62,112 nucleotides of DNA, filler included, from 5 parts of 5 records of this genome joined end to end with filler, not necessarily neighbours in it, one strand, 5' to 3'; shown: positions 2,664 to 61,353, numbered from the whole stretch's first letter. The notes: generated by a model from the sequence alone, not told the origin. A program made the numbers and translations.

Positions 2664-2907
2664 ATTTCGTACCCTCTTATGGATAAAAAAACAGCCTCAG
2701 CAAATTACCCCATCAGGAAATTGTCTGCAAGGATAAAATTTACGGATAAACCATTCGGGAACAATTGCAAAAGACCGGCGTGTTGGATTCTGGATCAAAA
2801 AGAAGGGTCCGGCAAACGATTCCTTCGGATACCCGGCAAAAAAAAAGCCCTTACTGAAATGAAAATATCCAATAAGAGCCCGGGGGATCTCACCCATTTA
2901 TTGCGGA

Positions 2908-3174
2908 TTAAACAGCCTCCTTCAAAGCCTTTCCGGCCACAAATTTCGGAACCGTTTTTGCCGCGATATCGATGGCTTTTCCGGTTTGGGGGTTAATGCC
3001 TTTCCTTGCTTTTCTTTCTTCCACCTTGAAGGTCCCGAATCCGATAATCGTGACCTTATCCTTACGCTTCAATGCTTCGGTGATACTGGAAAAAACACAA
3101 TCCACTGCAGCTTGCGCCTCTTTCTTGGTACCCACAACTTTGGCCACCTCGTCTAGCAAATCACCCTTGTTCAT
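2908..3174 (-). CDS. hup: DNA-binding protein HU
   Basis: MNKGDLLDEVA...GFGTFKVEERKARKGINPQTG...PKFVAGKALKEAV. Confidence 0.95.
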   Translation of the reverse strand: MNKGDLLDEVAKVVGTKKEAQAAVDCVFSSITEALKRKDKVTIIGFGTFKVEERKARKGINPQTGKAIDIAAKTVPKFVAGKALKEAV

Positions 3175-3496
3175 TACCTTCCCTCCTCGCTACAGATGTT
3201 GACGAAAAGTCCGCCCTGAAAGCCGGAATCTAAACCACCCTCCCCGAAAAAAAGCCGAATGTCAAAATAAAACCACCCAACATTCCTGCCGCCAAAACCT
3301 TTCCCACCCAACCTTTTACGACGCGCATGAAACATATCCCATGGGCTTTCTTTTGTCAAGAATTTATAAGAGTTAAAGACAATTTACATAAACGGTTTCA
3401 ATTTTCCCGGAAAAACACCCACCGGAACATTTTCCTCCATAAGGGTAAAAAATTCACCACCATGTATCCCAGATATGCTACCAAACAGATTTGATC

Positions 3497-4564
3497 TTAA
3501 ATATCCTGAAAGGCTCCCTCAGTGGATTCGGCCTGCAGTCGAGCCAACAAGCGCATGGCTGAACGTGCATTGGCCGGGTTCATGGAACCCATGCCGCAAG
3601 ACGGCGTAAAAATGGACCTTTCGACAATTGTCTCCGGACTTATACCTTTTTCCCCTATCCTTGCAATGCCGCCTCCGACCTTTTTCAAAAGATCCTTTTC
3701 AGATTCATGGCCCGTAAAACCGGATGTGGGAACAATGCCCCATGCAACGGTGCCGCCCTCTTTAATAAAATCTGCGATACCGTCGGGATAAAGCAGGAAA
3801 TGTTCAATAAATTCAAATGCATCAAAATTGATAATGTCCGGTCTGGCCGCCATAATCATAGACCAATCCGTATTACCGCAGCAGTGTATTCCCACCAGGC
3901 AATCAGAATTGTCTTTGAGATGAGATATCATCATTTGAAGCTTATCAACCACATCCTGCCGCTGAATTGAGGAAAAAGCCGATCCAAAACCCGAAAGTGA
4001 CGGTTCGTCCAGAAAAATAACAGGCCGGCGACCTGATTTTTCCAGCATCCTTACCTGCCAGAGGGCTTTAATGGCCAGACCCCTCACAAAGGCTTCCGAC
4101 AACTCAGGATCATGGATAACAGGTCTTCCGTCCAACCCCAGGATTCCCGACGTGAAGGTAATGGGCCCAACAGTCTGCCCCTTGATATAATGTGTTTGAT
4201 TCGATTTGATTTCATTTAAAGAGGCCATCAGGGTATACAGCCCCGGGGCATAAGCCTCACTGATGGCAAAAGACTCCAAATCTCCCGAGAAGAACCGCTC
4301 ATAAAAATTCACCAGTTCCGATTCCCTTTCACCGGAATTGGAGAGTGTCAGACTTCTTTTTTCCCGGTTTACCGAAAGTAGTGGAAGCCCTTCACTGTAT
4401 TGGACACTCATATCCTCAAAATAGCTCCGTTTCACGAACTGGGGCCAGAAGGGCATGTGTGGGAAAAGCCGTATGATTTCCCGACAAGTCGATTCCACCT
4501 CCAAAAACGGAACGCTTCCGATACCGGTTGCCATAAACCCGAAATCGGGTAATTTTTCAGCCAT
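3497..4564 (-). CDS. Cobalamin-independent methionine synthase II-like family protein
   Basis: ATGIGSVP, WPQF, KGQTVGPIT, FLDEPSL, GIHCCGNTDW, AWGIVPT, TPSCGMGS (Zn-ligand pattern). Confidence 0.7.
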   Translation of the reverse strand: MAEKLPDFGFMATGIGSVPFLEVESTCREIIRLFPHMPFWPQFVKRSYFEDMSVQYSEGLPLLSVNREKRSLTLSNSGERESELVNFYERFFSGDLESFAISEAYAPGLYTLMASLNEIKSNQTHYIKGQTVGPITFTSGILGLDGRPVIHDPELSEAFVRGLAIKALWQVRMLEKSGRRPVIFLDEPSLSGFGSAFSSIQRQDVVDKLQMMISHLKDNSDCLVGIHCCGNTDWSMIMAARPDIINFDAFEFIEHFLLYPDGIADFIKEGGTVAWGIVPTSGFTGHESEKDLLKKVGGGIARIGEKGISPETIVERSIFTPSCGMGSMNPANARSAMRLLARLQAESTEGAFQDI

Positions 4565-5315
4565 ATTTTATCTCCCCCACCCTGGGAAGCCACTTTTCCA
4601 GTATTGTGAGCAATTTTTCTTTTTGCGTATCCACCCCATTCCGGGACTCTTTCGTTACACCGGGAAGGTCTGCTTCCAACTCGGCTTTCAGCTGGGCAAG
4701 CCGCTCGGCGGAAACACTGTCATCGGGATGTTCTTCAATGACTCTTTCATAGGTTTCCACCGCAGCGTTCAGTTGCCCCTGGCTGAAATAAAGCTCGGCG
4801 ATGGTCGGCGTGGCGAAGTTTACCAGGGATTCCTCTTCATCATCCGGCAAAACAGGCCATTTTGGATCAGGCCCTTCTGCCGCATCCCCGACTTCTCCCG
4901 CTATTTGGAGTATTTCATGCATTTCAGGATCATCAGGTTGGTGTGCCAGGAAAATTTCAGCCTCACCGGCAGCCTCTGTAAACCGCTTCTGCTTTGCATA
5001 AATCCCCGCAAGTCTGGCGTAGACGGGAAGCAAATCATTCATCATGGTTGAAACCTTCAGAAATTCAGTTTCCGCCTGCCCCACCGATCCCGATTCATGG
5101 TAACACTCCGCAAGGAGCATTCTCAAATAAATATCTTTTGGATAGACCCTCAAAAACGTCATGCACCATTTAATCACTTCATTGACGCGGCCCTCACCCC
5201 TCATTCGGGCCAGAATGACGTACAAGGTGCTTTGAGAGGGCCCATGCCTTAGAATTTCATCATATAAAACAGTGTTATCTTCCATTTGTCTAATTTCCAG
5301 TACCACCTTTCCCAA
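4557..5315 (-). CDS. Tetratricopeptide-repeat protein
   Basis: Helical TPR-like repeats, e.g. TPTIAELYFSQGQLNAAVETYERVIEEHPDD; true start may be MEDNTV near 5285. Confidence 0.7.
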   Translation of the reverse strand: MGKVVLEIRQMEDNTVLYDEILRHGPSQSTLYVILARMRGEGRVNEVIKWCMTFLRVYPKDIYLRMLLAECYHESGSVGQAETEFLKVSTMMNDLLPVYARLAGIYAKQKRFTEAAGEAEIFLAHQPDDPEMHEILQIAGEVGDAAEGPDPKWPVLPDDEEESLVNFATPTIAELYFSQGQLNAAVETYERVIEEHPDDSVSAERLAQLKAELEADLPGVTKESRNGVDTQKEKLLTILEKWLPRVGEIKYG

Positions 5316-11187: not shown

Positions 11188-12462
11188 TTAATAGCCGAAG
11201 AAACCGCCTTCTTTTTCGGTCTTGTTCCAGAGATCAGGCCATCTTTTCTTCAGATCCACATCCGCCACCACCTGAAATTTTCCGCCTTTCCATTCCTGAA
11301 CACGGCATCCGGTGGCCGGACGGTGATCCTTCGCCGTATAGCTGATGGGCGCGGCGCCCAGACCGATATCAAAATTGCGCATGGTCTCAAAGCCCTTCTT
11401 CATAATCGCGGGGCCGGACCCTTTTTTGGTGACGTCCACACCGGCAGCGTCAGCCCGTTTCAAGGCTTCCCAAAAAACCAGGGCATCACCCCATGCCTGG
11501 ACCGTACGGATCAGCCTTTTTCCCAGAGGCACACCGGGGCTGTATTTTTCAGCAGAGGAAACCACCAGATCCATATTCTTCACGTTCTGGCCGAAAAACG
11601 CACATGGGGTAGCACCCATGACCCCTTCAGCCGCTTCCCCTGCCAGGCGCGGCAGATTCTCATCAAAACCCCAGTTGTTGACGATCCAGCCGGCGCCCAG
11701 CCCCAGGGCATAAGCGTCCCGAACGGTAGCGGCAACGCTCATGGTGGTATTGCCGTGCCATACCAGGTCGGGCTTGAATTTTTTAAGGGCCATTACCTGA
11801 CTTTTGGTGTCCAGGGCGAAAAGAGACACATCCTGGTCCGGGCCGATCTCAAAGCCCAGCAGCTTGGCCTGGTTTTTGATGGCCTTGATGGGGGCGGAGC
11901 AATAGGGCGACGCAAACATGTAACAGCACGCAAACCGGGGTTTCCGTTTTCCGAAATCCGGATGCTTGGACCACTTCTTGTCAAACCATGCGGTGATGCA
12001 ACTCCTGGCATTGGTGGAATAGTCCGACGAGAAAAAGAGATTGTACGGCGTCTTTGCGGGATTCGTCAAATGGGCCGAATAGGACGCCGACACGTAGGGG
12101 ATCTTGTCCTTGTTGACGGTGGGCGAAAGGGCTTCCGTATCACCGGTTCCCCAACCCATAATGCCGACCGCACCCAAACGTTTCAACATCTTATACTTGG
12201 TGATGGCCTCGGGAATCCGGTAGCCGTAGTCAAACCACGTATACTTGATTTTTTTGCCGTTGACGCCACCCTGGCTGTTGATGTATTTAAAAGCGTCCGC
12301 CATGCCGATGGCATAATCCTTCCCCACATCGGAAGTGGCGCCGGTGCAATCCATAATTCCCCCGACCTTAATTTTCTTTGCCGCGGCAACCGTTCCAAAA
12401 GCTGTCAGAAAAACCACCGCCAGCAACAGTACCCCTAATTTTGTGAGCATACTCTTTTTCAT
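11188..12462 (-). CDS. ABC transporter substrate-binding protein (LivJ/K-like, type 1 PBP)
   Basis: Signal peptide; IKVGGIMDCTGATS, YINSQGGVNGKKI, GWGTGDT. Confidence 0.88.
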   Translation of the reverse strand: MKKSMLTKLGVLLLAVVFLTAFGTVAAAKKIKVGGIMDCTGATSDVGKDYAIGMADAFKYINSQGGVNGKKIKYTWFDYGYRIPEAITKYKMLKRLGAVGIMGWGTGDTEALSPTVNKDKIPYVSASYSAHLTNPAKTPYNLFFSSDYSTNARSCITAWFDKKWSKHPDFGKRKPRFACCYMFASPYCSAPIKAIKNQAKLLGFEIGPDQDVSLFALDTKSQVMALKKFKPDLVWHGNTTMSVAATVRDAYALGLGAGWIVNNWGFDENLPRLAGEAAEGVMGATPCAFFGQNVKNMDLVVSSAEKYSPGVPLGKRLIRTVQAWGDALVFWEALKRADAAGVDVTKKGSGPAIMKKGFETMRNFDIGLGAAPISYTAKDHRPATGCRVQEWKGGKFQVVADVDLKKRWPDLWNKTEKEGGFFGY

Positions 12463-12654
12463 AAAGTTTTCCCCCTTTTTACGCTGATTATGAAACTATC
12501 ATGCCAACCGATATTACCGACGATATGAAATATCCTCTAAAAGACAACCCTCACCCCCTTTCTCCGGAACAGTGCCAACATAAACATCGGAAGAATTCCG
12601 CCACGGGCGGAATCGTGTATCCACATATTATAAGCGCCATTGAAACCTGGAACC

Positions 12655-13755
12655 TTAGTACGAAAACGGCCAGAGGTTGAAATAGTTCTTCGCCTGCCAC
12701 CAGCGGTATGCGAGACCGTTGGGTTCATAAATGAGAAAACCACAGATGGCCAGCCCGAACGCCATGTCCTTGACATAGGCGAAATCCATCAGGAGTTGCG
12801 GAAAATAGTCCGCCAGGGGGATCACCGCCAGCTGTAGGACTTCCATCACCACCACCATGAAAATGGAACCGAAAACAGCCCCCTGGATCGAGCCCACACC
12901 TCCGATAAGAATCACGCCCACCAGCCACAGGGATAAAAACCACTGAAAATGTTCGGGACTTAAGGCTGCCGTGTTGCACACCCAGAAGGCGCCGGCAACA
13001 CCCGCCATGAATCCGGCCACGAAAAAAGCCAGCAGTTTATACCATACGATATTGATCCCGAGGGCTTCCGCGGCGATATCGTTGTCCCGAATGGCCACCC
13101 AGGCCCGGCCCGGTTTGGAGCGGAGCAGGTTGGCCAGAACGATAATCATCAGCGACAACAGGACCACCATCACCAGATAGATGCTCATCTCATTATCGAT
13201 AACCCAGGGGCCGATCTTGATGGTTCCGGGCGGCAGGGAAAAAGCCTGCCCTCGCCCGCCGATCTGGCTGATATACTGGGTTAAAATAAAGTCCACGGTG
13301 ATAAACTGGGCCGCCATGGTGGTTAAAATCAAATAAAACCCTTTGACCTTAACGGAGGGGAGTCCAAAGAGCACGCTCCAAAGCCCGGCGACAATACCCG
13401 CCGCAACAATGCTCACGGGATAGGCCAAGCCCCCATCCACCATGAACTGGGGCCAGGGGAACTGCAATACCAGCATGGTACTGGTATAGGCGCCCACCGC
13501 AATAAAAGCGGCGTGCCCCAAAGTCAAAAGCCCCGCATAGCCGATGAGCAGTTGAACGCCCAGTGCACCCATGGCCGTATACCCCACCATGGTGGCCACA
13601 CTCATCCAATACTCATCAAAAAGGAGGGGAATCCCCACAAAAACAACCAGCAAAAGCAGAATCATCTTTCCCTTGATGAATTTGGTCTGCCACCATCCCT
13701 GATCTTCTTTATAATCCTGATGGTAATCACCGCAAGGCAACCATACGCTGCTCAT
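12655..13755 (-). CDS. livM: ABC transporter permease (LivM-like)
   Basis: GYAGLLTLGHAAF, GRAWVAIRDNDIAAEALGIN. Confidence 0.88.
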   Translation of the reverse strand: MSSVWLPCGDYHQDYKEDQGWWQTKFIKGKMILLLLVVFVGIPLLFDEYWMSVATMVGYTAMGALGVQLLIGYAGLLTLGHAAFIAVGAYTSTMLVLQFPWPQFMVDGGLAYPVSIVAAGIVAGLWSVLFGLPSVKVKGFYLILTTMAAQFITVDFILTQYISQIGGRGQAFSLPPGTIKIGPWVIDNEMSIYLVMVVLLSLMIIVLANLLRSKPGRAWVAIRDNDIAAEALGINIVWYKLLAFFVAGFMAGVAGAFWVCNTAALSPEHFQWFLSLWLVGVILIGGVGSIQGAVFGSIFMVVVMEVLQLAVIPLADYFPQLLMDFAYVKDMAFGLAICGFLIYEPNGLAYRWWQAKNYFNLWPFSY

Positions 13756-44516: not shown

Positions 44517-44651
44517 CGCAGTAATTAAGTTGATTAATAGAATTTATTGCATTCCCAATTTTGGATGTAATTTCTGAAAATAGCGACCGCCCCCTGCAAT
44601 CAGTATTGCGAAGTGCCGACAATGAATTTGCATCGGCCTTGTCGGCTTTGA

Positions 44652-45557
44652 TCAGTTGGATGTTTCGCTTGCCGGCTTGGGCCGCCCGGCCGGAATATCG
44701 CGGCCGAACAGCCGCGAGGCGTTGCCATAGGCAATCTTTTCGGCCGTGTCGCGCGGCAGCAAGGCGAGCCAGCGGCGGTTCAGCGCGATCAGCCCTTCGT
44801 AATTGTCCCACTGCGCGTTGACCCAGGTGTCGGTGCCGACCATCAGCTTATCGGCATGGCGCTCGATCACCGCCCGCCAGGCCGGATCGAGGCCGTCGGC
44901 ACCGCCCAGAATATCGTTCTCGCGGAACGAGGTGTCGGCGTAGAGGGTCGCATAGGCGTCCATCATTTCACCGACGACGGCGGCCGGTTCGCCCATGCCG
45001 GCATGGGCCCAGATGATCGTCAGGGCCGGTTCCAATTCAAAAAAGAAGCGCACCGGCTCGGCGCTGGAATGGATGTGCACGGGGACGTTCCTGGATACGG
45101 CCATTTCCGCCACCGCGGCCAACAGCGGCCGATCGTCCGGATCGAGGTTGTGGATATGGAACTCGCCCAATCCTTCGTGCGGATAGCGGGCCAGGCGGTC
45201 ATTCAAATACGCTTCCATGCCGTCGGCCTTGGTCCAGTTGCCGGACCCGGCATCGCCGTGATAGGGGCGCAGTTCGGGCACGATGCGGTCCGGCGCGTAT
45301 TCCCACAGCCGAATGGTGCCGTCGTCCGGGGTCGAGGAAACCAGGGCCATCGCGACGCCGCTACGATCCATCAGTTCGATGACAGTCTCGACCGGATAGG
45401 GTCCCCTGGCCGGCCGTTTGTAGTGCATGTGGGCGTCGAAGATGGGAACGTCTTCGATCGCCGCCCCGATGGGGGGCGCTTCGTCGGCGATGGCGACCGA
45501 CAGAGCAAACGCACAGAAGGCCGCCGCGACGGCAAGATATCGGACCGATTGAACCAT
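44652..45557 (-). CDS. Secreted amidohydrolase-family protein
   Basis: Signal peptide; IFDAHMHY, GLGEFH, HIH, IWAHAG, MVGTDTW, KIAYGNA. Confidence 0.85.
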   Translation of the reverse strand: MVQSVRYLAVAAAFCAFALSVAIADEAPPIGAAIEDVPIFDAHMHYKRPARGPYPVETVIELMDRSGVAMALVSSTPDDGTIRLWEYAPDRIVPELRPYHGDAGSGNWTKADGMEAYLNDRLARYPHEGLGEFHIHNLDPDDRPLLAAVAEMAVSRNVPVHIHSSAEPVRFFFELEPALTIIWAHAGMGEPAAVVGEMMDAYATLYADTSFRENDILGGADGLDPAWRAVIERHADKLMVGTDTWVNAQWDNYEGLIALNRRWLALLPRDTAEKIAYGNASRLFGRDIPAGRPKPASETSN

Positions 45558-45586
45558 AAGCGCTCCCTCTCCGTCGTCGCTGATCG

Positions 45587-46495
45587 TCAAGTGTGTTTGA
45601 TGAAGCTGCCGTCGTTGAGTTCGGCAATAGCCTGGCGCAGTTCGTCTTTGGTGTTCATAACGATGGGGCCGTGCCAGGCGACCGGTTCCTCGATCGGTTT
45701 GCCCGAGACCAGCAGGAAACGGATGCCTTCCTCGCCGGCCTGCACGGTGATTTCGTCGCCGCGGTCGAACAGCACCAGGGAGCGGTTGCCGGTGGTCTCG
45801 CGGACCAGGGTTTCGGCACCGTTTACCTCTTTCTCGGTGAGAACGCCGAAGGGCGCCGAAGCGTCACGGAAATTTCCCGATCCGGCAAACACATAGGCGA
45901 AGCCGTGCCGGCCGGTTTCGACCGGCAACGTCTTGCGCTTATTCGGCGGCACCGATACGTCGAGGTAGCGCGGATCGGCGGCGATGCCGTCGACGGGGCC
46001 GGACTTGCCCCAGAAATCGCCGCAGATGATGCGCACCGTCGTGCCGTCGTCATCGATGATTTCCGGGATTTCGGCCGCCGGCACATCCTGATAGCGCGGC
46101 TTCGTCATCTTCAGCGAAGACGGCAGGTTGGCCCACAACTGGAAGCCGTGCATGCGCCCGGCAGCGTCGCCCTTCGGCATTTCCTGGTGCATGATGCCGC
46201 TGCCGGCGGTCATCCACTGCACGTCGCCGGCGCCGAGCGCGCCCGCATTACCGAGGCTGTCACCATGAGCCACCGTGCCGGCCAGAACGTAGGTAATGGT
46301 TTCGATGCCGCGATGCGGGTGCCAGGGAAAGCCGGCCAGATATTCTTCGGGCCGATCGTTGCGGAAATCGTCGAACAGCAGGAACGGATCTGTTTCAGCC
46401 GTTTCGCCGAAGCCGAAGGCGCGGCGCAGGTGAACACCGGCCCCTTCGAGCGTCGGCCGGGATTCGACGATGCGTTTGACCGGGCGGATGGACAT
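45587..46495 (-). CDS. Pirin-family protein
   Basis: DPFLLFD, GFPWHPHRGIETITY, WMTAGSGIMHQE, QLWANLP, GPIVMN. Confidence 0.95.
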   Translation of the reverse strand: MSIRPVKRIVESRPTLEGAGVHLRRAFGFGETAETDPFLLFDDFRNDRPEEYLAGFPWHPHRGIETITYVLAGTVAHGDSLGNAGALGAGDVQWMTAGSGIMHQEMPKGDAAGRMHGFQLWANLPSSLKMTKPRYQDVPAAEIPEIIDDDGTTVRIICGDFWGKSGPVDGIAADPRYLDVSVPPNKRKTLPVETGRHGFAYVFAGSGNFRDASAPFGVLTEKEVNGAETLVRETTGNRSLVLFDRGDEITVQAGEEGIRFLLVSGKPIEEPVAWHGPIVMNTKDELRQAIAELNDGSFIKHT

Positions 46496-46573
46496 GGCGG
46501 GCTCCCACAGAGTTGGCGGACGCCCTGCATGTGGGAAGCGGCCCGCGAAGTGTCCAGTCCGCCGCCCTCGACC

Positions 46574-47476
46574 TCAGAACAGCAGCAGGGTCAGGATGCC
46601 GCCGACGACCAGGACGATACCGGTAAATTCGACCGGCGTCGTTTTTTCCCGGAAAAAAAGCGCCGAGGCGGCGAAGGTGAAGACCAGCTCGATCTGGCCC
46701 AAGGCCCGCACATAGGCCGCATTTTGCAGGGTCATGGCGGTGAACCAGCAGGCCGAGCCGATCATGCTGGTCACGCCAACCCAAACCGTCCAGCGCCATT
46801 CCCGAAAGACCGCCGTAATCTGGGCCCGGTCGGTCATCGCCAGATAAACCGTCATGACGATGGTCTGGAAGACCAGCACGCAAACCAGGGTAAGACCGGC
46901 GCGCTCGGCAATTCCGCCGGTACCCAGCGCCAGCGCGGCGCCGCGATAGCAGACCGCGGCAATGCCGAACAGGCCGCCCGAGGCGAGCCCGATCAGGGCC
47001 GGTTTTTCGGCGATGCCCGACAGCATGCCCCGGATCGATCCGTCGGTTTTCACCGCCGAGATCGCCATCACCCCGGCCAGGCTGATGACGATGCCGAGGC
47101 TTGCCGTCGGGCTCGGGAACTCGCCCAGCAGGACCATGCCGACCAGAACGGTCTGCACGGTCTCCGTCTTCGAATACGTCGTACCGACGGCGAAATTGCG
47201 GAAATCGAAGGTCCGCAACAAAAGAAACGTCGCCACGACCTGAGCCAGCCCGCCGACGAGGCCGTACAGCGCGAAGACCCCGTTCGGCCGCGGCAGGGGC
47301 GCCGGCCCAAGGGACGAAATCAGCCACAGGTAGGCAACCGCGAACGGCAAGCCCAACGCGAAGCGGGCGTAGGTGGCGCCCATCGTGTTCAGCCGGCCGG
47401 TCAGGTGTTTTTGCAGGGCGGTGCGCAGGTTCTGCGTGAACGCGGCCAGGATGGTAATCGGTATCCACAGTTCGAT
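46574..47476 (-). CDS. DMT/EamA-family transporter; apparent non-AUG (ATC) start
   Basis: Frame extends 31 codons upstream of the tracked ATG as (I)ELWIPITILAAFTQNLRTALQKHL; GGGAG 9 nt upstream, then an in-frame TAA. Confidence 0.8.
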   Translation of the reverse strand: MELWIPITILAAFTQNLRTALQKHLTGRLNTMGATYARFALGLPFAVAYLWLISSLGPAPLPRPNGVFALYGLVGGLAQVVATFLLLRTFDFRNFAVGTTYSKTETVQTVLVGMVLLGEFPSPTASLGIVISLAGVMAISAVKTDGSIRGMLSGIAEKPALIGLASGGLFGIAAVCYRGAALALGTGGIAERAGLTLVCVLVFQTIVMTVYLAMTDRAQITAVFREWRWTVWVGVTSMIGSACWFTAMTLQNAAYVRALGQIELVFTFAASALFFREKTTPVEFTGIVLVVGGILTLLLF

Positions 47477-48021
47477 CGGACGATACTCCCGTTAAGCATT
47501 CCCGCCGAAGGCTTCCCTATTCCGGGGAATTGCCGGGGCGGCATAGTCGATTAACCTAAAACGACGCCTGATTACAAAGGGATCGTTGAGTTTTCCCCAG
47601 GGTCAAACCGGCCGCGCCGGTTGGATGCCCGAACGCCGGCGTTCAAAAATGACGATTTTCCGGCCTCGCGGATTTGCGCCAAGTTCTTGATAACAAAGGC
47701 CGATCCGAAATCTCCACGAACGATTTATCGTCATTCATCGTCCCTGATCGTCATTTTGCCGATTTTGCCTTTGTTTTCAGGGCCGTAGCCGCCCGGAAAA
47801 ACCGCCTGTATGGCCGCCCCGGTTTCGGCAGACCGACAACGCCGCCCCGCCCGGGAGCAAAAGGGGAATACTATCCTATTTGCCGCAAAAAGTCAATATT
47901 TTTGAAGCGAGAGCGTCGTTTGCCAAAAGTATAAAAAATATCGCCAGCACAGCTTTTCATTGTATGGCGATTCATTGATAGTTTAATCTCCGCTTTGAAC
48001 GGTTTGGGGGAAGCCATTCAA

Positions 48022-49566
48022 ATGGGAACAATACCGCACACAATATTCATCGCTTACGCACATCAAGATTGGAGATTGGAACAGAAAACTTCCACGCAAT
48101 TACGCGTGTTAGAATCCTGCTCTAACATTGATGTTTGGAGTGACAGAGATATAGGCGGTGGCGAAAATTGGCTTAGAGAAATTGAGGATGCGATTTCACG
48201 AGCACGCGTGGCCATCCTTCTTGTATCTTCAGATTTTCTGACCTCGGACTTTATTACACGTGAAGAAGTCCCTGCGCTTTTGGCGCGGGAATCGAAAGAC
48301 GGTCTCCCCATTATTCCAGTCCTTATTGAAGACTGCGCGTGGAAACATGTTCCATGGTTAAAGAAGATGCAAATTCGCCCAAGCGGGGCCAAGCCAATTG
48401 CAAATTATTCCCGCGCCAACCGCAACACACAGTTGGCAGCTATCGTTGATGAAGTAGCAAAATTGTTGGAGAAGACTGCTCCTAAAGCTACGGCGACCGC
48501 AGAGACGGTCGCAGACATCCCAAGACATAGAACACCATCCAAAACAGTAGAGCGCATAAGCACACTTCCAGTTGGCGGATTGGCCCTTCCTTGTTTTTTC
48601 CCTTCTGTCTCAGGCGCCGCTAAAAGCAACTTTTCGCCCCTCGCACATCTTGAGATTCTTGTTCGACTGAAGCATCCGTGTTTTTTGACCTCTGCATACG
48701 ACTTCGTGAAAGTTAGCCGGAGTGAAAGAATTCACCGGGATGATCGGTTGAAGATGCTGTCCTTGATTAACGAAGCTTCTGTGAATGGTCAGGTGGTTTT
48801 GCTTGATTCGGGATTGTATGAGCGAAAATGGCTGCACGATAGTACGTGGGCTCGGCAAAGCTTTCATGCGGCTCTTGCTGGCATTCGTTGCCATCTGGGC
48901 TTTTTCTTCGATAACGTGAAAAATAAGCCATCATCGTCTCTTCGGGAAAGCGCAGCGGCGATCAACAACAAAGTACGTAGTGATCGACGCTCGGCTGATC
49001 TCGAGGCTCTTTTCCCAATAGTCCACCCAAGAATAGCTGGCGAGCCTGATTCATTACCGGAACTGTGTAAATTGGTCGCTTTTGATCTGGACAGCGACAT
49101 TATTGCGGTTGCCGAGAGAGAATTGGGAAATGGCATATTGGAAGGTGTGAAAACAATGCTTTCCATCCGCCGTGCCCTAAATGAAACAGGCCGATATCGG
49201 ATAATTCATGTGCTTGGCACAGGGAACCCGCTATCTATTTTAATATATGCATCATGCGGCGCAGACAGTTTTGACGGGCTGGATTGGTGTCAGACCGTTG
49301 TGAACTATGAAGACAAGCGTCTTTACCACAATTTGCAGATTGACTTCTTCAGGGATCAGTCAGGCTATGCAGAAGCCATAGAACTCGGCCATCCAACCCG
49401 TATGTTGGGCCACAACCTTCTTTTCTATCGGGAATGGATGAGTCGAATTCAAAATCATATAGCTTCGGGGACCCTGTCTGAGTTGTTAAGAGAAGTGCTC
49501 CCAACACAGTTCTGTGACGATTTCCTCAAGTTATTGGATAGTACGAACACAGGGGGTAGGACGTGA
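48022..49566 (+). CDS. TIR domain fused to a tRNA-guanine transglycosylase (TGT/Cap10-like) barrel
   Basis: N-term IFIAYAHQD...VWSDRDIGGGENW...AILLVSSDFLTSDFITREE (TIR_2-like); low-complexity linker; C-term VLLDSGLYE, IIHVLGTGNP, GADSFDG (TGT-fold motifs). Confidence 0.8.
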   Translation: MGTIPHTIFIAYAHQDWRLEQKTSTQLRVLESCSNIDVWSDRDIGGGENWLREIEDAISRARVAILLVSSDFLTSDFITREEVPALLARESKDGLPIIPVLIEDCAWKHVPWLKKMQIRPSGAKPIANYSRANRNTQLAAIVDEVAKLLEKTAPKATATAETVADIPRHRTPSKTVERISTLPVGGLALPCFFPSVSGAAKSNFSPLAHLEILVRLKHPCFLTSAYDFVKVSRSERIHRDDRLKMLSLINEASVNGQVVLLDSGLYERKWLHDSTWARQSFHAALAGIRCHLGFFFDNVKNKPSSSLRESAAAINNKVRSDRRSADLEALFPIVHPRIAGEPDSLPELCKLVAFDLDSDIIAVAERELGNGILEGVKTMLSIRRALNETGRYRIIHVLGTGNPLSILIYASCGADSFDGLDWCQTVVNYEDKRLYHNLQIDFFRDQSGYAEAIELGHPTRMLGHNLLFYREWMSRIQNHIASGTLSELLREVLPTQFCDDFLKLLDSTNTGGRT

Positions 49567-50264
49567 CTTTAGATAGAATTGAGGCTGCGGTCATCGCTGT
49601 TTGCCAAGAGATACTCTCTCAGATGTCCGAGGCAACGGATTGGATCGAACGCACCGAAAAGGATTTGTTTCGAGAAGTTGTGGCATCCATCCTCGGCAGC
49701 CAAGTTTCTTTCGAAATGGCCCTAGCGGCAACTGATGCTCTCGAGGCAGATGGGTTGCTGAGTTATTCCGGAGATAGAGAAGAGTACACAAAACGCGTAA
49801 CGCAAATTCTAATTCAGCCTCTATATCAACCTGAGTGGCAACGAAGTCGACGTTACCGTTTCCCAAAAGCACGTGGTGAAGCTATCGCAAATACGGCAGC
49901 AACTTTTTATGAGAACAGTGGAACAATTAAGGGCTTTCTCGATCAATATAATGACCCGCTTTCGGCACGGCGCCACTTCGTTGAACAGGCGAAGGGGATA
50001 GGTCCTAAGCAAGCAAGTATGGTTCTGCGAAACATTGGTTTTTCTCACGATTTGGCAATTCTAGATGTGCATTTATTGCGGTTCATGAAAATCTGTGGCT
50101 TGCGAAGAACTTCATCATCCGTTTCAACATTGAAGAATTATGAAAAAACTGAAAGGGATTTTTCGGCTTATTCAAGTGAAACAGGGTGGCCGATGGGAAT
50201 ACTTGATCAAGCTGTTTGGGTGGTCATGCGGGTTTATCAGCGGGAAGTTCGATGGGCATCGTAA
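49563..50264 (+). CDS. HhH-family 8-oxoguanine DNA glycosylase/lyase-like protein (Cap11-like)
   Basis: YRFP, KGIGPKQASMVLRNIG (HhH with Lys), LAILDVHLLRF (Asp), LDQAVW; GTGA overlap with upstream gene. Confidence 0.82.
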   Translation: MTLDRIEAAVIAVCQEILSQMSEATDWIERTEKDLFREVVASILGSQVSFEMALAATDALEADGLLSYSGDREEYTKRVTQILIQPLYQPEWQRSRRYRFPKARGEAIANTAATFYENSGTIKGFLDQYNDPLSARRHFVEQAKGIGPKQASMVLRNIGFSHDLAILDVHLLRFMKICGLRRTSSSVSTLKNYEKTERDFSAYSSETGWPMGILDQAVWVVMRVYQREVRWAS

Positions 50265-50848
50265 TACTTTCGTCAGGTGGACTTGACTCGAGCTTGGTTG
50301 CTCTTATGGCAGCAGAGGAGGGAATCACCCAATATCCACTCTTTGTTAATTACGGCCAGATCAACAAAAACAAAGAGTGGAATGCCTGTCTGCACGTGCA
50401 CCAAACCCACAACCTGCCCAAACCAGAGCAAGTAGATTTATCGGGATGGGGCAAGACTTTTCCGTCCGGTCTAACCGATACCTCGAGGGATGTCGTCTAT
50501 GAGGCATTTCTTCCAAATCGGAACCTTTTGTTTCTCTTGGCAGGTAGTGCATATGCTCATCAGCGAGAGGCAAACGCCGTTGCGATTGGGTTGCTAAATG
50601 ACGCCAGACATCTTTTCCCTGACCAAACTCAAGAGTTTGTCGCTCGGGCAGAAGATATGATTGCCTTGTCTCTAGGACGCCGCATTCGGCTTTTGGCTCC
50701 ATTAATCGAGTATTCAAAAGCCGACGTTCTATTGGCGGCTGATCAGAGAGGTTTGATCGGAACCTACTCTTGCCACGCTGGCGGCGATGAAAAATGTGGC
50801 AGGTGCATTTCGTGCATGGAATTTAACATTCAGCAAGATGAGGTGTGA
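50252..50848 (+). CDS. queC: QueC-family 7-cyano-7-deazaguanine synthase-like protein (Cap9-like)
   Basis: SGGLDS PP-loop, NYGQ, PNRNLLFL, FPD, SKAD, TYSCH...CGRCISC Zn site. Confidence 0.92.
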   Translation: MGIVILSSGGLDSSLVALMAAEEGITQYPLFVNYGQINKNKEWNACLHVHQTHNLPKPEQVDLSGWGKTFPSGLTDTSRDVVYEAFLPNRNLLFLLAGSAYAHQREANAVAIGLLNDARHLFPDQTQEFVARAEDMIALSLGRRIRLLAPLIEYSKADVLLAADQRGLIGTYSCHAGGDEKCGRCISCMEFNIQQDEV

Positions 50849-50849
50849 A

Positions 50850-51295
50850 ATGGGCGGCGGCGGAGGCGGAGGCCCATCAAGGGCCAATCTTCAGAAGCTG
50901 GAAGATATTGCAAAGAATAAACTTCGTGAATCCGGCGGAGAATCTCGACGAAATGTTTTCATTAGTTTTGCGTACGAAGATCTTGCAGACGTAAATCTCT
51001 TGCGCGGTCAATCGAAGAACAAAAACAGTGACATTGAATTTAACGATTGGTCGCTTCGTGAGCCGTTTGATAGTAAAAGGGCAGAGTATATTCGCCAAGG
51101 TATCGAAGATCGAATAAGGCAATCATCAGCAACGTTAGTTTATATTTCTGACAAGACAGCTTCGAGCAAATGGGTTAACTGGGAAATAAACAAGAGCATC
51201 GAACTCGGCAAGAGGGTTGTTGCTGTCTATAAAGACGGTTCAAAACCAACTCAAACTTGCCCAGCAATTAAGACTCATGGGATCAAGATGATACC
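50850..51295 (+). CDS. ThsB/DUF1863-like TIR protein with N-terminal poly-Gly (truncated at contig end)
   Basis: GAGGTG RBS then MGGGGGGGPS; RNVFISFAYED, IEDRIRQSSATLVYIS, SKWVNWEI (catalytic Glu). Confidence 0.87.
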
Positions 51296-56691: not shown

Positions 56692-58785
56692 ATGATTAAA
56701 ATAACTTTTCGATCGAAAAATATATCATTGATTTATTTTGTTGTTATCTTGTTTGTTCTTTTTATGGGAGATAGGGCAGCACAAGCCTTCTGGAGAACCG
56801 GAGGACCTTATGGGGGCGATATTAATTGTTTGGCAATCGCCCCGAACCCCGATACTATATATGCAGGAACTATCAGGGGATTGTTTAAAACGGCTGATGG
56901 AGGAAATACATGGAGAAGGACAGGCTTTCCCAAAATTCCAGTTCGAACTATTCAAGTCTCTCCCGAGGGCCAGTGTCAAATAGCATCCGGAAGCGTAGCA
57001 AAAGCGGAACAATCCAATGTTGTCTATGTAGGTACTGACGGTGGCGTCTACAAAAGCCAGGATGGTGGTAATACATGGGATCTGAAAGGCCTGTTGGGGG
57101 ACAAGGTCAATACCATAGCCATAGACCCTCTAAATCCTTGTGTTATTTATGCAGGAACCGGAGATGATGATCCGGGAAGCACAAGCATAGGAAAAATATT
57201 CAAAAGCACAGATGGAGGAGAAGTCTGGCAAGAAAAGGTTTCTTCTGTATGGATGAATGCGGTAAGGGCTCTCCTCATCGACTCCGATAACTCTGATTAC
57301 ATTTACGCTGGTGCCTACGGTTCTTATGGTTTTTGGAAGAGTACAGATGGGGGAGAGATTTGGGTGCGAAGTAAAATAGGACCATACCTTACAAATGAAG
57401 TGTCTGCCCTTTCCATGCCCCCTGCTGGATATAGCCCCAAAGTAATTTATGCTATTGCCGGTATAAGTGGGGACAACGTATATAAGAGTACAGATCAAGG
57501 TGAGAGTTGGTTGCTAACGAATGCGCCGAGCCAGTCCCGGGCAATAGCTTTTGATCCTAATAATCCCGATGTTATCTATAGTTGCAATCAATACTACCAA
57601 GGACGTTTTTATAAAAGCACCGATGCGGGTAATACGTGGTCTGTGAAAGATGTCGGCCTTCCTCGGGGTGGTATTTACGGTAGTCCTTCAAGTATTGTAA
57701 TTAATCCGCAAAACAGTGCTCTTTATGTTGGTATTCATGAAGGTGGCGTGTTTAAATCTACAGATGGCGCAGATAATTGGAGTTTTTCAAGTTCCGGCAT
57801 TACCGGGTGGATAGACATTGCAAATCTGGCTGTTCACCCAGCTTGGTCAAGTACTGTATTTGCCGCGGTAAAGGCTGATGGCCACTGCCTTGTCAAAACG
57901 AACAACGGGGGATCCTCATGGGAGTGGTTACCCAATTCATCCACTAATCTTGGAGCAGTTGCAGTCTGCCCAGAAAATCCTCAAATCCTTTGGGCAGGTG
58001 ACGGCCTCCAGGGGGACAGAAGCTTTTACGTTTACAAGAGCACTGATGGTGGAAAAAGTTGGACGGATAAAATGTTTTTCTATTTCTCCGGTTACGATTA
58101 TACAGGAGTTACCGACATTTTGATAAAAGCCAATGCTCCAGATTCCATTTTGGTAGGCACGGATTTTCTAGTAGCTCATGGAGCTATTTATGGAGAAGGA
58201 ATGTTAGCTAGGACTATTGACGGTGGCAATACGTGGGAAAGGTTAGGCGGCTCAACCACTACATTGGCAACTGATCCCACCGATCCGAATGTCGTATATC
58301 GTGCAAAAAGAAGAATCGGGGAAGTTTTTCGACATACCGAGGTTTGGGGTTCTATTACCACCACGGAAATCACTCCTGCTGGCGGAATTGGTGATGTGAG
58401 TGATATAGAAGTCGATTCGGATTCGACGGTTTACGTTGCGGCAAGTGACGGCTTGTGGAAGTGGGACGGCTCAGATTGGGTAACTTTAAACGGTTTGTCT
58501 ACCAATAACCTTACTGCTTTAGCCATTGACAGATCAACAAGTCCGGGAATTGTTTACGTGGGAACCGCAGAGGACGGGGTATTTGTTTCAAAGGATGGTG
58601 GGAGTACTTGGTTAACCTTTAACGGAAGTCTTGGTAATCTTTCTATAACTAAACTCGTCATAACCGTGACCCAACCGAAAATGCTTTATGCTGGCACATC
58701 TAACGGCGGTGTGTGGAGTAGGAGATTATCTCCTATGGTCATGCCCGCCATGCCTTGGATTCCGGTGCTGCTGCTTGACGATTAA
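56692..58785 (+). CDS. Secreted BNR/Asp-box (VPS10/YCF48-like) beta-propeller protein
   Basis: Signal peptide; about 10 KSTDGGxxW Asp-box repeats; C-terminus MPWIPVLLLDD. Confidence 0.88.
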   Translation: MIKITFRSKNISLIYFVVILFVLFMGDRAAQAFWRTGGPYGGDINCLAIAPNPDTIYAGTIRGLFKTADGGNTWRRTGFPKIPVRTIQVSPEGQCQIASGSVAKAEQSNVVYVGTDGGVYKSQDGGNTWDLKGLLGDKVNTIAIDPLNPCVIYAGTGDDDPGSTSIGKIFKSTDGGEVWQEKVSSVWMNAVRALLIDSDNSDYIYAGAYGSYGFWKSTDGGEIWVRSKIGPYLTNEVSALSMPPAGYSPKVIYAIAGISGDNVYKSTDQGESWLLTNAPSQSRAIAFDPNNPDVIYSCNQYYQGRFYKSTDAGNTWSVKDVGLPRGGIYGSPSSIVINPQNSALYVGIHEGGVFKSTDGADNWSFSSSGITGWIDIANLAVHPAWSSTVFAAVKADGHCLVKTNNGGSSWEWLPNSSTNLGAVAVCPENPQILWAGDGLQGDRSFYVYKSTDGGKSWTDKMFFYFSGYDYTGVTDILIKANAPDSILVGTDFLVAHGAIYGEGMLARTIDGGNTWERLGGSTTTLATDPTDPNVVYRAKRRIGEVFRHTEVWGSITTTEITPAGGIGDVSDIEVDSDSTVYVAASDGLWKWDGSDWVTLNGLSTNNLTALAIDRSTSPGIVYVGTAEDGVFVSKDGGSTWLTFNGSLGNLSITKLVITVTQPKMLYAGTSNGGVWSRRLSPMVMPAMPWIPVLLLDD

Positions 58786-59189: not shown

Positions 59190-59730
59190 AATGGGAGATT
59201 TATCATAAAATCGGCCACGAGGTCTCCCAAAAAAACGAAATAAAAAGGAACTCGGGTAAAATATGTAGACAAAGTTAGCCCGTTCTGCGAAAAGATTTTG
59301 TGCCAAACAAAAACTATTCAAGGAAAGGACGGGCTAGATCATAACTTCGGCCACTTTATGCCGATCTTTTCAGAGGGTGAAAATTAAATACTGTAATTAC
59401 AGACCTTTGAAGGTGTTATGAAGTGAACTCCCGCATAGGTGGCCCATCTTATTATCAAGCCCCATTTTGATTTAAAGGTTCGGTCATCAAAGTTTATTGG
59501 AGATTATTGCGTCAAGTTAAATCCGAAACATTGGGAAAGGAGAGAATGAACTCTTTCAGATTATAGTCATAACACTTTCAGCATGTTCCATCCTACCGTT
59601 AAGTACGCATTTTTCCATATACAGCATGTAAAAAACTTCCCTTTACACCATATCTTTCTTGGTTGTATCTCCTTTCTTTAAAGAAAAAAAGATAACTTTA
59701 TTTTTAAGCCAACTCCATGGGGAAGAGAAG

Positions 59731-61353
59731 ATGAAGAGCAAATATAAAAAAAGAGTGGAAGATATCGAACGGCGCGCCAGGGACATGAAAGAGTCCTTGC
59801 TGAATCCCGTTATCGATGAATCAACCGGTGGGTTCATTGGCGAGTCTGCCGTCAGAAATGAACGTCTTGAGGCTGTGACCCAGCACAGTATCTTTGAGTC
59901 TGCCGGCAAAGGCGCGGCCACAATTCAGGCCACCGCATCCAATGCATTGCGGCAATATTGCCTCACCTACGGGGTTGCACCCAGCCCCGACCTGTTGGCC
60001 TCAGCGCACATGGCCATTGAGCAGGGGCTGCAGGTGACGTCCGAGAATGCGACCAGGCCTGAAGGTCTTGTTTTTGAATCTGCGCTTCCCACATCCACCA
60101 CGGAAGGCGTTTTGATGCGTGACCGGATGGTGGCCCTGGTCCTGCCCGTTATGCTGCATTCCGTCACTTCCCGTATGGTGACCCACATCCCTGGAACGTT
60201 CAATCAGTCTGAAATCTTCAAGGTCATGAAGATCGCGGGCAGCACGTTCGGGGACCTGAAGAAGGGCGACATCATTGATTATGATTTCAAAGGTCAGTAC
60301 GCCACCATGGACCAGCGGCATGAGATTGCCGTGGGCGATGGGACCGAGGTCGGCGGGGCCGGCAGCGCGACCAAAGATTATTTCAAATTCGATACCGCCA
60401 CCAACCTGGGCGCCAAGATGCCGATCAAGAAAAAGCGGGTCAGACTTTTGCACGACCGGAGTGTTGTGGCCGTGGACGATGGCGCAGGCAATCTCCATGG
60501 AACCTTCCTTGTGGGGGGCACCACGGTTACCGTTACCGGTTCCGTGGTCTATGGTAACGGTACGGTAAATCCTGTTTTTTCTGTTCCCCCTGCAACCGGC
60601 ATCAAGGTTGATATCGGCATTGATATTGATATCGAAAAAGACCCCTCCCTGATCCCCCTGACAGATTATGAGATGGATAGCAAGGTGATTTATCCCCACG
60701 AGTCTGCCATTTCCTGCGGAATGTCGCTCCAGGCGCTCTGGGCCATGAGGCGTGAGTACAACCTCAACATGGAATCCATGGCCATGACTGATATCCGGAA
60801 TCTGCTTGCGGCGGATAAGGACCGCAAGATCCTGAACGACCTGAGGTATTTTGCCAAGGGGAGTATGTCCTGGGATATCACAGTTCCGGATGGACTGTAC
60901 TTCCAGGAGCACTATGAAACCTTGAGGCGCAAACTCATTGAGATCGATGCGGCTATGATGAACAGAACCGGCAAGGCCGGCCTGTCCGGTATCGTTTTCG
61001 ATAAAGATTCAGCCGCAATCGTGAAAGCCATGAAGGCCCCGCATTTTGTGCCGGCCGCCGGCTACAGGCGCCTGGCGCAGCCCCATTACATCGGAAGGCT
61101 GTTCAATATGTGGGACGCCTATGAAGATCCCCAGGGGCCCTCCTACACCAACCTCTGTTACGGTGTCGGTAATTCTGTCGGGGAAGCGGGGTATGTTGTT
61201 GGCGACTGTATCCCCGCTCTTCCCTTCAAACATCCGGTTTTGGGTGACCTCAAATACTCAAGCACTCTCTGGAGCCTGGGGTATCGTGATCTGAACCCGT
61301 TTGATGGCAGGGATTATTTCATGGAATTGCTTTTCACGGCCTCAGGTAAGTAG
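59731..61353 (+). CDS. Major capsid protein, P1 gp23-like
   Basis: Colinear with recalled P1 gp23: PDLLASAH, LVLPVML, AGSTFG, DIEKDPSLIPL, HYIGRLF, AGYVVGDCIPALPFKHP, GRDYF. Confidence 0.88.
   Translation: MKSKYKKRVEDIERRARDMKESLLNPVIDESTGGFIGESAVRNERLEAVTQHSIFESAGKGAATIQATASNALRQYCLTYGVAPSPDLLASAHMAIEQGLQVTSENATRPEGLVFESALPTSTTEGVLMRDRMVALVLPVMLHSVTSRMVTHIPGTFNQSEIFKVMKIAGSTFGDLKKGDIIDYDFKGQYATMDQRHEIAVGDGTEVGGAGSATKDYFKFDTATNLGAKMPIKKKRVRLLHDRSVVAVDDGAGNLHGTFLVGGTTVTVTGSVVYGNGTVNPVFSVPPATGIKVDIGIDIDIEKDPSLIPLTDYEMDSKVIYPHESAISCGMSLQALWAMRREYNLNMESMAMTDIRNLLAADKDRKILNDLRYFAKGSMSWDITVPDGLYFQEHYETLRRKLIEIDAAMMNRTGKAGLSGIVFDKDSAAIVKAMKAPHFVPAAGYRRLAQPHYIGRLFNMWDAYEDPQGPSYTNLCYGVGNSVGEAGYVVGDCIPALPFKHPVLGDLKYSSTLWSLGYRDLNPFDGRDYFMELLFTASGK

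Follow-up and report, generated by a model that had tools for sequence, protein, structure and literature searches.

A four-gene cassette linking a Gly-tailed ThsB-type TIR protein to homologues of the type IV CBASS proteins Cap9, Cap10 and Cap11, with a TIR-Cap10 fusion

The 62-kb stretch of DNA analysed here (62,112 nucleotides, hereafter the window) consists of five contigs with N spacers between them. The contig at positions 44517-51295 carries, up to its right-hand edge, a cassette of four genes on one strand, g1 to g4, encoding a TIR domain fused to a barrel that resembles tRNA-guanine transglycosylase (TGT), a DNA glycosylase, a QueC-like ligase and a ThsB-type TIR protein. An earlier note on this DNA, made by a model from the sequence, had read these genes as tightly coupled and had proposed that they form a hybrid between Thoeris and type IV CBASS (cyclic oligonucleotide-based anti-phage signalling system), controlled by deazaguanine chemistry and with a TIR in the place of the cyclase. 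The coupling is as described there, with a 4-nt overlap between g1 and g2, a 13-nt overlap between g2 and g3 and a 1-nt gap between g3 and g4.

The product of g1 is composed of a TIR_2 domain (approximately residues 1-150), a disordered linker (155-171) and a TGT-like barrel (approximately 175-510). The TIR part matches Pfam TIR_2 (PF13676, 6.5e-15, residues 8-114) and is of the AbTIR type by its PDB matches (7uwg, 8g83). Its residue E82 falls opposite the Glu of 'WTNYEL' in the AbTIR-type chains 7uwg_A and 7uxr_A, which we take to be the catalytic residue. The TGT-like half is matched by a PADLOC CBASS model (PDLC00913, 3.5e-20), with Pfam TGT right at the cut-off, and its sole significant sequence match in the PDB is Cap10 of type IV CBASS (9ntn_A). 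The AlphaFold2 model of g1 (predicted local distance difference test, pLDDT, 86.5) has 9ntn_B as its top Foldseek match (E 5.8e-13, TMt 0.69), above the classical TGTs. The g1 residues D262/S263, D297, H396 and D418 correspond to D73/S74, D122, H226 and D248 of Cap10 in 9ntn_A, which passages of Wassarman et al. (2025) give as base-reading and catalytic residues, and five of the six Cap10 residues named there are invariant across 41 fusion proteins and 33 Cap10-domain sequences.

The protein encoded by g2 matches Ogg-HhH in Pfam (PF22175, 1.5e-27) and NF002305 (4.6e-30, under that model's cut-off). In its top PDB match, 3n0u_A (5.2e-11), the g2 stretches GIGPKQAS and ILDVH are aligned with GIGWKEAS and ILDKH; K149 and D168 of g2 sit within the HhH-GPD motif, and this Lys and Asp align with the Ogg 3n0u. 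The g3 protein matches QueC in Pfam (PF06508, 1.1e-33) and PADLOC (PDLC00911, 4.3e-24), and in the PDB both QueC (2pg3, 8.6e-13) and Cap9 (9nto_B, 1.1e-9). It has a C-terminal Cys cluster and, at residues 8-13, the sequence SGGLDS, an instance of the SxGxDS motif named for Cap9 in Wassarman et al. Taken by their Pfam, PADLOC and PDB matches, with the PADLOC models for CBASS TGT and QueC matching g1 and g3, the three genes are homologues of Cap10, Cap11 and Cap9, as had been proposed.

The fourth gene encodes a ThsB_TIR protein (PF08937, 2.2e-25), which covers positions 1-150 of a profile of 166 positions. Since its closest homologue among the loci that we fetched is 160 aa long, the 148 residues present before the contig edge are short of a full protein by only about 12. 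The TIR core begins at residue 37 and is preceded by a 36-residue extension that starts with MGGGGGGG and continues as a helix. This N-terminus fits the motif M(G/S)G(G/S)GG, with which, according to passages of Wassarman et al., all type IV CBASS CD-NTases (cGAS/DncV-like nucleotidyltransferases) begin; there, Cap9 attaches 7-amido-7-deazaguanine to Gly2 of the CD-NTase, and the tagged tail is bound by Cap10, whose tRNA surface is remodelled. Across 62 ThsB sequences neither M1 nor E112 varies, and G2 and G3 hardly do. Both TIR domains of the cassette therefore keep a candidate catalytic Glu, as the earlier note had seen (Table 1). Its picture of a module wired to two TIR domains calls for refinement: the two belong to different families, TIR_2 of the AbTIR-like kind in g1 and ThsB_TIR with a Gly tail in g4, and probably play different roles.

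Table 1. Features of the contig that carries the cassette, in window coordinates
Feature	Position	Strand	Description	Basis
g1	48022-49566	+	TIR_2 and Cap10-type TGT-like barrel	read from sequence, Pfam, PADLOC
g1 E82	48265-48267	+	Glu proposed as catalytic in the fused TIR domain	invariant in 41 fusion proteins
g1 D262/S263, D297, H396, D418	48805-49275	+	Cap10 pocket residues	aligned to 9ntn_A, hand-counted along the HMMER alignment
g2	49563-50264	+	Ogg2-type glycosylase (Cap11-like), GTG start	read from sequence, Pfam
g3	50252-50848	+	QueC-like ATP-dependent ligase (Cap9-like)	Pfam, PADLOC
g4	50850-51295	+	ThsB-type TIR, ends at contig edge	Pfam
g4 MGGGGGGG codons	50850-50873	+	predicted 7-amido-7-deazaguanine acceptor (Gly2 after Met removal)	motif match
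g4 E112	51183-51185	+	candidate catalytic Glu	invariant in 62 ThsB sequences
Flanking genes	44652-47383	-	high-GC housekeeping genes outside the system: Amidohydro_2, Pirin, EamA transporter	Pfam
Intergenic stretch	47555-48021	.	about 470 nt at the GC drop, left island edge	composition

Related loci were collected from genomes (53 loci) and metagenomes (at least 40), belonging to many phyla, and were annotated by script. About half of the best 120 relatives of g1 are full-length TIR and TGT proteins; the closest long one among them (P0001, 76% identity), on a 47-kb contig, stands outside the fetched set. The order Cap10-Cap11-Cap9-ThsB is near-universal among the fetched loci, of which there are some 90, and is thus far from a chance arrangement. 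Cap9 was found in 77 loci, and in all 73 of these with at least 200 nt of sequence downstream a ThsB-type gene starts between -11 and +22 nt relative to the end of Cap9 (counted among the 73 are the window locus, the duplicates L071=L003 and L074=L007 and some near-identical contigs; distinct full-length sequences number 61 besides that of the window). An M-G-G-like start was seen in 71 of these 73 ThsB proteins, and the other two begin with MGNKSN and MGGYRRG. As a control, we looked at the 36 other ThsB-type genes of the same loci: all begin right at the first strand of the TIR core, and none has a Gly tail or a 35-residue extension. A TIR in the place of the cyclase, as the earlier note put it, is therefore what the related loci present, with the Gly-rich N-terminus kept.

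These loci also bear on the simplest conventional explanation, namely that the window holds part of an ordinary type IV CBASS, with a CD-NTase and an effector past the contig end and with the two TIRs acting as NAD-depleting effector domains. The contig indeed ends within g4, two PADLOC CBASS models match the cassette, and TIR domains do act as CBASS effectors, such cases having been discarded by Yirmiya et al. (bioRxiv, Dec 2025) according to passages of that preprint. Against it, the gene after Cap9 was a Gly-tailed ThsB and not a cyclase in every one of the 73 loci, and the closest fetched relative has a Thoeris-type effector gene after ThsB (see below). Profile scans found no CD-NTase on the contig of the cassette, nor among 40 neighbour genes of related loci that were scanned singly and that turned out to be restriction-modification subunits, transposases, Fic proteins, ATPases, extra TIRs and similar; a Pfam sweep of 121 neighbour representatives showed no cyclase among the 25 commonest of 143 families. 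In 11 of 14 host genomes that carry the module there was no match to SMODS, and the other three had a single match each, located on another contig or 0.8 Mb away. The earlier note had left room for a CD-NTase downstream; none was seen beside any related locus that we examined, and we give the ordinary-CBASS explanation next to no chance.

What does recur beside the core is one of two other genes, usually abutting it on the same strand. The first encodes a protein of about 300 aa with SLATT_3 and SLATT_1 matches (ThsH-like), and the second a protein of about 440-470 aa in which an alpha/beta N-terminal domain is followed by MAP3K_TRAF_bd and TPR-S (ThsI-like). Among the 48 loci flanked by 1.5 kb or more on each side, 43 have one or both within 4 kb (28 SLATT only, 12 ThsI-like only, 3 both), and 5 have neither. 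In passages of Yirmiya et al., ThsH (a SLATT protein) and ThsI (a CMP hydrolase with TPR) are the effectors of type VII and VIII Thoeris, which answer canonical cyclic ADP-ribose (cADPR), and the three loci with both effectors recall the rare operons noted there. Our SLATT and hydrolase-TPR partners fit ThsH and ThsI, with which we equate them by domain description alone. The model of the ThsI-like protein (pLDDT 84.9) resembles ASK1 over its whole length, and its N-terminal domain scores 0.88 in the Atlas against clusters named 'nucleoside 2-deoxyribosyltransferase'; Pfam gave no usable match to the first 130 residues of ten ThsI-like proteins.

The closest relative among the fetched loci (L054; 73% identity in g1 and 81% in ThsB) has a ThsI-like gene 18 nt downstream of ThsB (PF13281, 2e-45; PF20308, 8.4e-20), and a gene of this type is therefore the most likely missing gene of the window locus. 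The suggestion that an effector may lie past the contig end thus gains from the downstream genes of the relatives, which, when tabulated, gave ThsI-like or SLATT effectors and showed neither CD-NTase nor dpd genes. Two further neighbours were noted in passing. In L091 the Gly-tailed ThsB is directly followed by an 827-aa TIR-NB-ARC-TPR protein with the architecture of Avs/STAND-like proteins (L091:13257-15737). Two loci have a 335-aa protein with a weak SLATT_1 match (5.4e-05) upstream of Cap10 (L044:2664-3668, L042:112-1119), which may be a divergent SLATT effector outside our clustering counts.

The effector genes could be read differently, as independent Thoeris modules that happen to adjoin a self-contained abortive-infection NADase; in such a system tagged ThsB, the fused TIR_2 or both would deplete NAD+ once off Cap10, and neither a diffusible signal nor a separate effector would be needed. 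In favour of this, the domain fused to Cap10 is a TIR of the AbTIR/TcpB type whose Glu is invariant, three of the five well-flanked loci with neither ThsH nor ThsI are fused ones, and the ThsI-like and SLATT genes often come with a small ThsB of their own and could be separate two-gene systems. Nevertheless, we consider this reading unlikely, since the effector genes are present in 43 of the 48 well-flanked loci and usually abut the core, since ThsB_TIR proteins produce the signal in the Thoeris types tested (passages of Yirmiya et al.), and since the Gly-tailed ThsB is the only TIR beside the effector in many loci, L009, L013 and L040 among them.

The TIR-Cap10 fusion of g1 recurs among the relatives. 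Out of 82 complete Cap10 proteins, 24 carry an N-terminal TIR_2, one an AlbA_2 domain, and 57 no extra domain, and in two loci (L064 and L042) a separate TIR_2 gene lies directly upstream of Cap10. Fused forms fall into at least two clades of the Cap10-domain tree, where the branches with good support cannot be reconciled with fewer than four changes of state, and fused systems are present in the cultured strains Paraburkholderia haematera LMG 31837 and Bradyrhizobium sp. Ai1a-2. As 10 of the 13 well-flanked fused loci keep ThsH, ThsI or both, the fused TIR is no mere substitute for the effector. An origin of the fusion from the small ThsB that is often found upstream of unfused Cap10 was considered and rejected: those proteins belong to PF08937, as opposed to TIR_2 for the fused domain.

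Some Cap10-like proteins (L009:9653-11185, P0091, P0093, P0097 and P0113) carry an N-terminal AlbA_2/Schlafen domain (PF04326) where others have TIR_2. What occupies the N-terminal slot of Cap10 thus varies, with a nucleic-acid-binding domain as one option. Directly upstream of TIR-Cap10, three fused loci have a protein of 377-451 aa whose C-terminal half is weakly PfkB-kinase-like (L046:8302-9495, L091:8480-9832, L092:5807-6940); in two of them the SLATT gene lies on the opposite strand, and the third lacks both known effectors. An inserted gene of about 320-340 aa appears to interrupt Cap9 in L007/L074 (around 12126-13154; QueC:152 / 342 / QueC:56) and in L069 (around 2900-5000; QueC:102 / 323 on the opposite strand / QueC:118), which suggests that insertion sequences have disrupted the system in some genomes.

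The cassette type is already in print, so the earlier note's impression that the architecture had not been described does not hold. Passages of Yirmiya et al. report Thoeris operons with cap9, cap10 and cap11 and describe no experiments on them; a ThsB TIR, an effector and the three ancillary genes are common to those operons and ours. The published example, from Pseudomonadales SP163, is our locus L013, where the genes likewise run Cap10-Cap11-Cap9-ThsB, the ThsB is Gly-tailed and a SLATT gene is present, and for which AlphaFold3 gave an interface predicted TM-score (ipTM) of 0.79 between ThsB and Cap10 and 0.62 between ThsB and Cap9 (their Fig. S10B). Its Cap10 is unfused (341 aa), whereas that of the window is fused to TIR_2, and this fusion is an added feature of the present copy. 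The passages on Cap9 and Cap10 in Yirmiya et al. make no mention of a TIR-Cap10 fusion, a Gly tail or counts, and no mention of the fusion was found in the literature text that we searched, including the review PMC13434031 and the QueC-family preprint PMC13082051; figures and supplementary tables, which lie outside that text, may show it.

The cassette can be compared with better-studied systems. With type IV CBASS (CdnD; Wassarman et al. 2025, 9ntn/9nto, in the passages on that system) it shares the QueC-like, TGT-like and OGG-like ancillary genes, the M-G-G-rich N-terminal extension on the signalling enzyme, the Cap10 pocket with its Asp-His pair and the SxGxDS motif of Cap9. It differs in that the signalling enzyme is a TIR and not a CD-NTase, so that one expects a signal derived from NAD in place of a cyclic oligonucleotide, and in that the effectors of its relatives are Thoeris-type. 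Like type VII and VIII Thoeris, as these are described in the passages of Yirmiya et al., the relatives have a ThsH-like SLATT or a ThsI-like protein adjoining ThsB; unlike them, they are not two-gene systems without ancillary genes. QatABCD offers a further parallel, in that its QueC-family protein QatC is described as recruited to anti-phage defence and as acting on a protein partner, QatB; it lacks TGT-like, OGG-like and TIR genes and has an ATPase and a TatD nuclease as partners instead.

In Dpd 7-deazaguanine DNA modification, a TGT-like enzyme and QueC-pathway chemistry act on DNA, together with DpdB/DpdC and helicase genes. The cassette shares the TGT-like and QueC genes with Dpd and might be imagined to work in a like manner, with the TGT-like enzyme inserting 7-deazaguanine into DNA or RNA, QueC making preQ0, the Ogg protein excising the base and the TIRs serving as add-on toxins. 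TGT-like proteins, QueC and DNA glycosylases are indeed nucleic-acid base-exchange enzymes, the Asp-His catalytic pair is kept in the barrel of g1, and some Cap10 fusions have, in the position of the TIR, the nucleic-acid-binding domain AlbA_2. By both fold and sequence, however, g1 is nearer to Cap10, a binder of protein tails with a remodelled tRNA surface, than to TGTs; no DpdB, DpdC or helicase genes were seen among the neighbours scanned; and the strict link to a Gly-tailed ThsB would play no role in a pure DNA-modification system. A Dpd-like function is in our view highly improbable.

Taken together, we think it likely that the cassette is a Thoeris-type TIR system with the Cap9/10/11 module of type IV CBASS, in which deazaguanylation of its N-terminus primes ThsB and Cap10 holds it, and whose effector, probably ThsI-like, lies past the contig end. 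The hybrid of type IV CBASS and Thoeris that was first proposed is thus right in substance: the ThsB TIR, not a cyclase, appears to be the protein that the QueC- and TGT-like helpers tag with a 7-deazaguanine base. By homology with the reaction of Cap9 on CdnD, the start Met of g4 would be removed, and the Cap9-like g3 would use ATP to activate 7-carboxy-7-deazaguanine from the queuosine pathway of the host and join it to the free amine of Gly2, giving an N-terminal 7-amido-7-deazaguanine (NDG). The TGT-like barrel of g1 would then bind the tagged tail in its conserved base pocket and hold ThsB primed and inactive, and upon infection the retained Asp-His pair may move the tag onto some target. 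Freed or activated ThsB would make an NAD-derived cADPR signal, which would switch on the effector just past the contig end, most likely the ThsI-like hydrolase-TPR protein or else a SLATT membrane protein. As a best guess, the fused TIR_2, with its candidate catalytic Glu kept, would pair with the ThsB tethered there; it might be a second TIR that consumes NAD or makes a signal, or else belong to the switch that brings about activation.

Several points weigh against this favoured reading. The five of 48 well-flanked loci that lack both effector types include three of the 13 fused ones (L034, L046 and L049). The effector of the window locus is itself missing, and the other four contigs of the window hold no homologue of ThsH, ThsI, Cap10 or ThsB. 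The identity of the ThsI-like N-terminal domain as a nucleoside hydrolase comes from leads only, which point to the nucleoside 2-deoxyribosyltransferase or DRHyd-ASK group. A single cyclase could hide among the families beyond the 25 commonest of the neighbour sweep, and the SMODS profile used for the host genomes (PF18144) may miss some CD-NTases. Two features of type IV Cap10 are unconserved in g1: K154, which aligns with F331 in a part where the alignment is weak, and the acidic helix that clamps CdnD, so that the protein interface must differ from that between Cap10 and CdnD. The predicted complex of g1 with g4 scored an ipSAE of 0.42 (best control 0.00), which is weak support. Of 80 solved complexes 58 reached the pass mark, as did 2 of 110 mismatched pairs, and a score of 0.60 or less came from only 7 of the 80 and from both of the mismatches, counts that hold only roughly, the prediction having used our own alignments; at least 69% of contacts agree between runs, with a partner pLDDT of at least 65. 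Finally, the tag, the complex with Cap10 and the defence function are all inferred for TIR-linked Cap9/10/11 systems.

To our knowledge, CD-NTases are the only proteins for which deazaguanylation, the direct joining of a nucleobase to a protein N-terminus, has been shown. The loci examined here speak for control by this tag of the TIRs too, an unrelated second class of enzymes in immune signalling, across many phyla, with a strict rule in the examined set that a Gly-tailed ThsB always comes after Cap9. They open another, independent way to approach the target to which Cap10 transfers the tagged enzyme and the manner in which infection frees it, and the TIR-Cap10 and AlbA_2-Cap10 fusions are natural clues to this transfer or release step. 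A more speculative idea, to which we give a small chance, is that tagged ThsB tethered to a Cap10 dimer with two AbTIR-type TIRs forms a pre-assembled hetero-TIR machine, with the tag timing when the two TIR families meet in a composite active site. The fused domain could in that case be a second signal generator, for instance of a different cADPR isomer, or a built-in NADase amplifier. In line with this idea, the AlbA_2 fusions hint at an N-terminal slot that selects the target of Cap10-mediated transfer. If true, TIR-TIR assembly gated by a nucleobase-protein tag would be met here for the first time.

The genomic setting of the cassette is marked by a step in composition. Its GC content is 0.46-0.49, as compared to 0.62-0.65 across the upstream amidohydrolase, pirin and EamA genes, which agrees with the earlier description of the cassette as poorer in GC than the host genes upstream. 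One DNA run and no RNA run was listed among public sequencing runs with this sequence. An 11,363-nt contig of that public run, with even depth, spans positions 44517-51295 with zero differences and extends 3.9 kb past 51295, and because this single contig crosses the GC step we take it as a real junction; the public run is possibly the source sample and is hence not fully independent. Assembly chimerism at the step was considered and is unlikely given that contig. A consensus promoter scan upstream of g1 gave no site on the + strand, and two sites on the - strand, with 0.9 expected.

In 12 of the related loci the module is flanked by type I restriction-modification genes (HsdM, HsdS, HsdR; L005, L011, L013, L016, L019, L020, L023, L025, L030, L038, L067 and L070), which fits a defence-island setting. 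Within the window, a 653-aa open reading frame on the + strand (45593-47554) lies antisense to pirin and EamA in a stretch of 64% GC and is most likely a spurious high-GC frame. The next contig (51396-62112) represents a different genomic context with no homologue of the cassette genes; it encodes a secreted-looking protein of 697 aa with many 'TDGG.TW' repeats (56692-58785) and holds a 564-aa open reading frame at 59659-61353.

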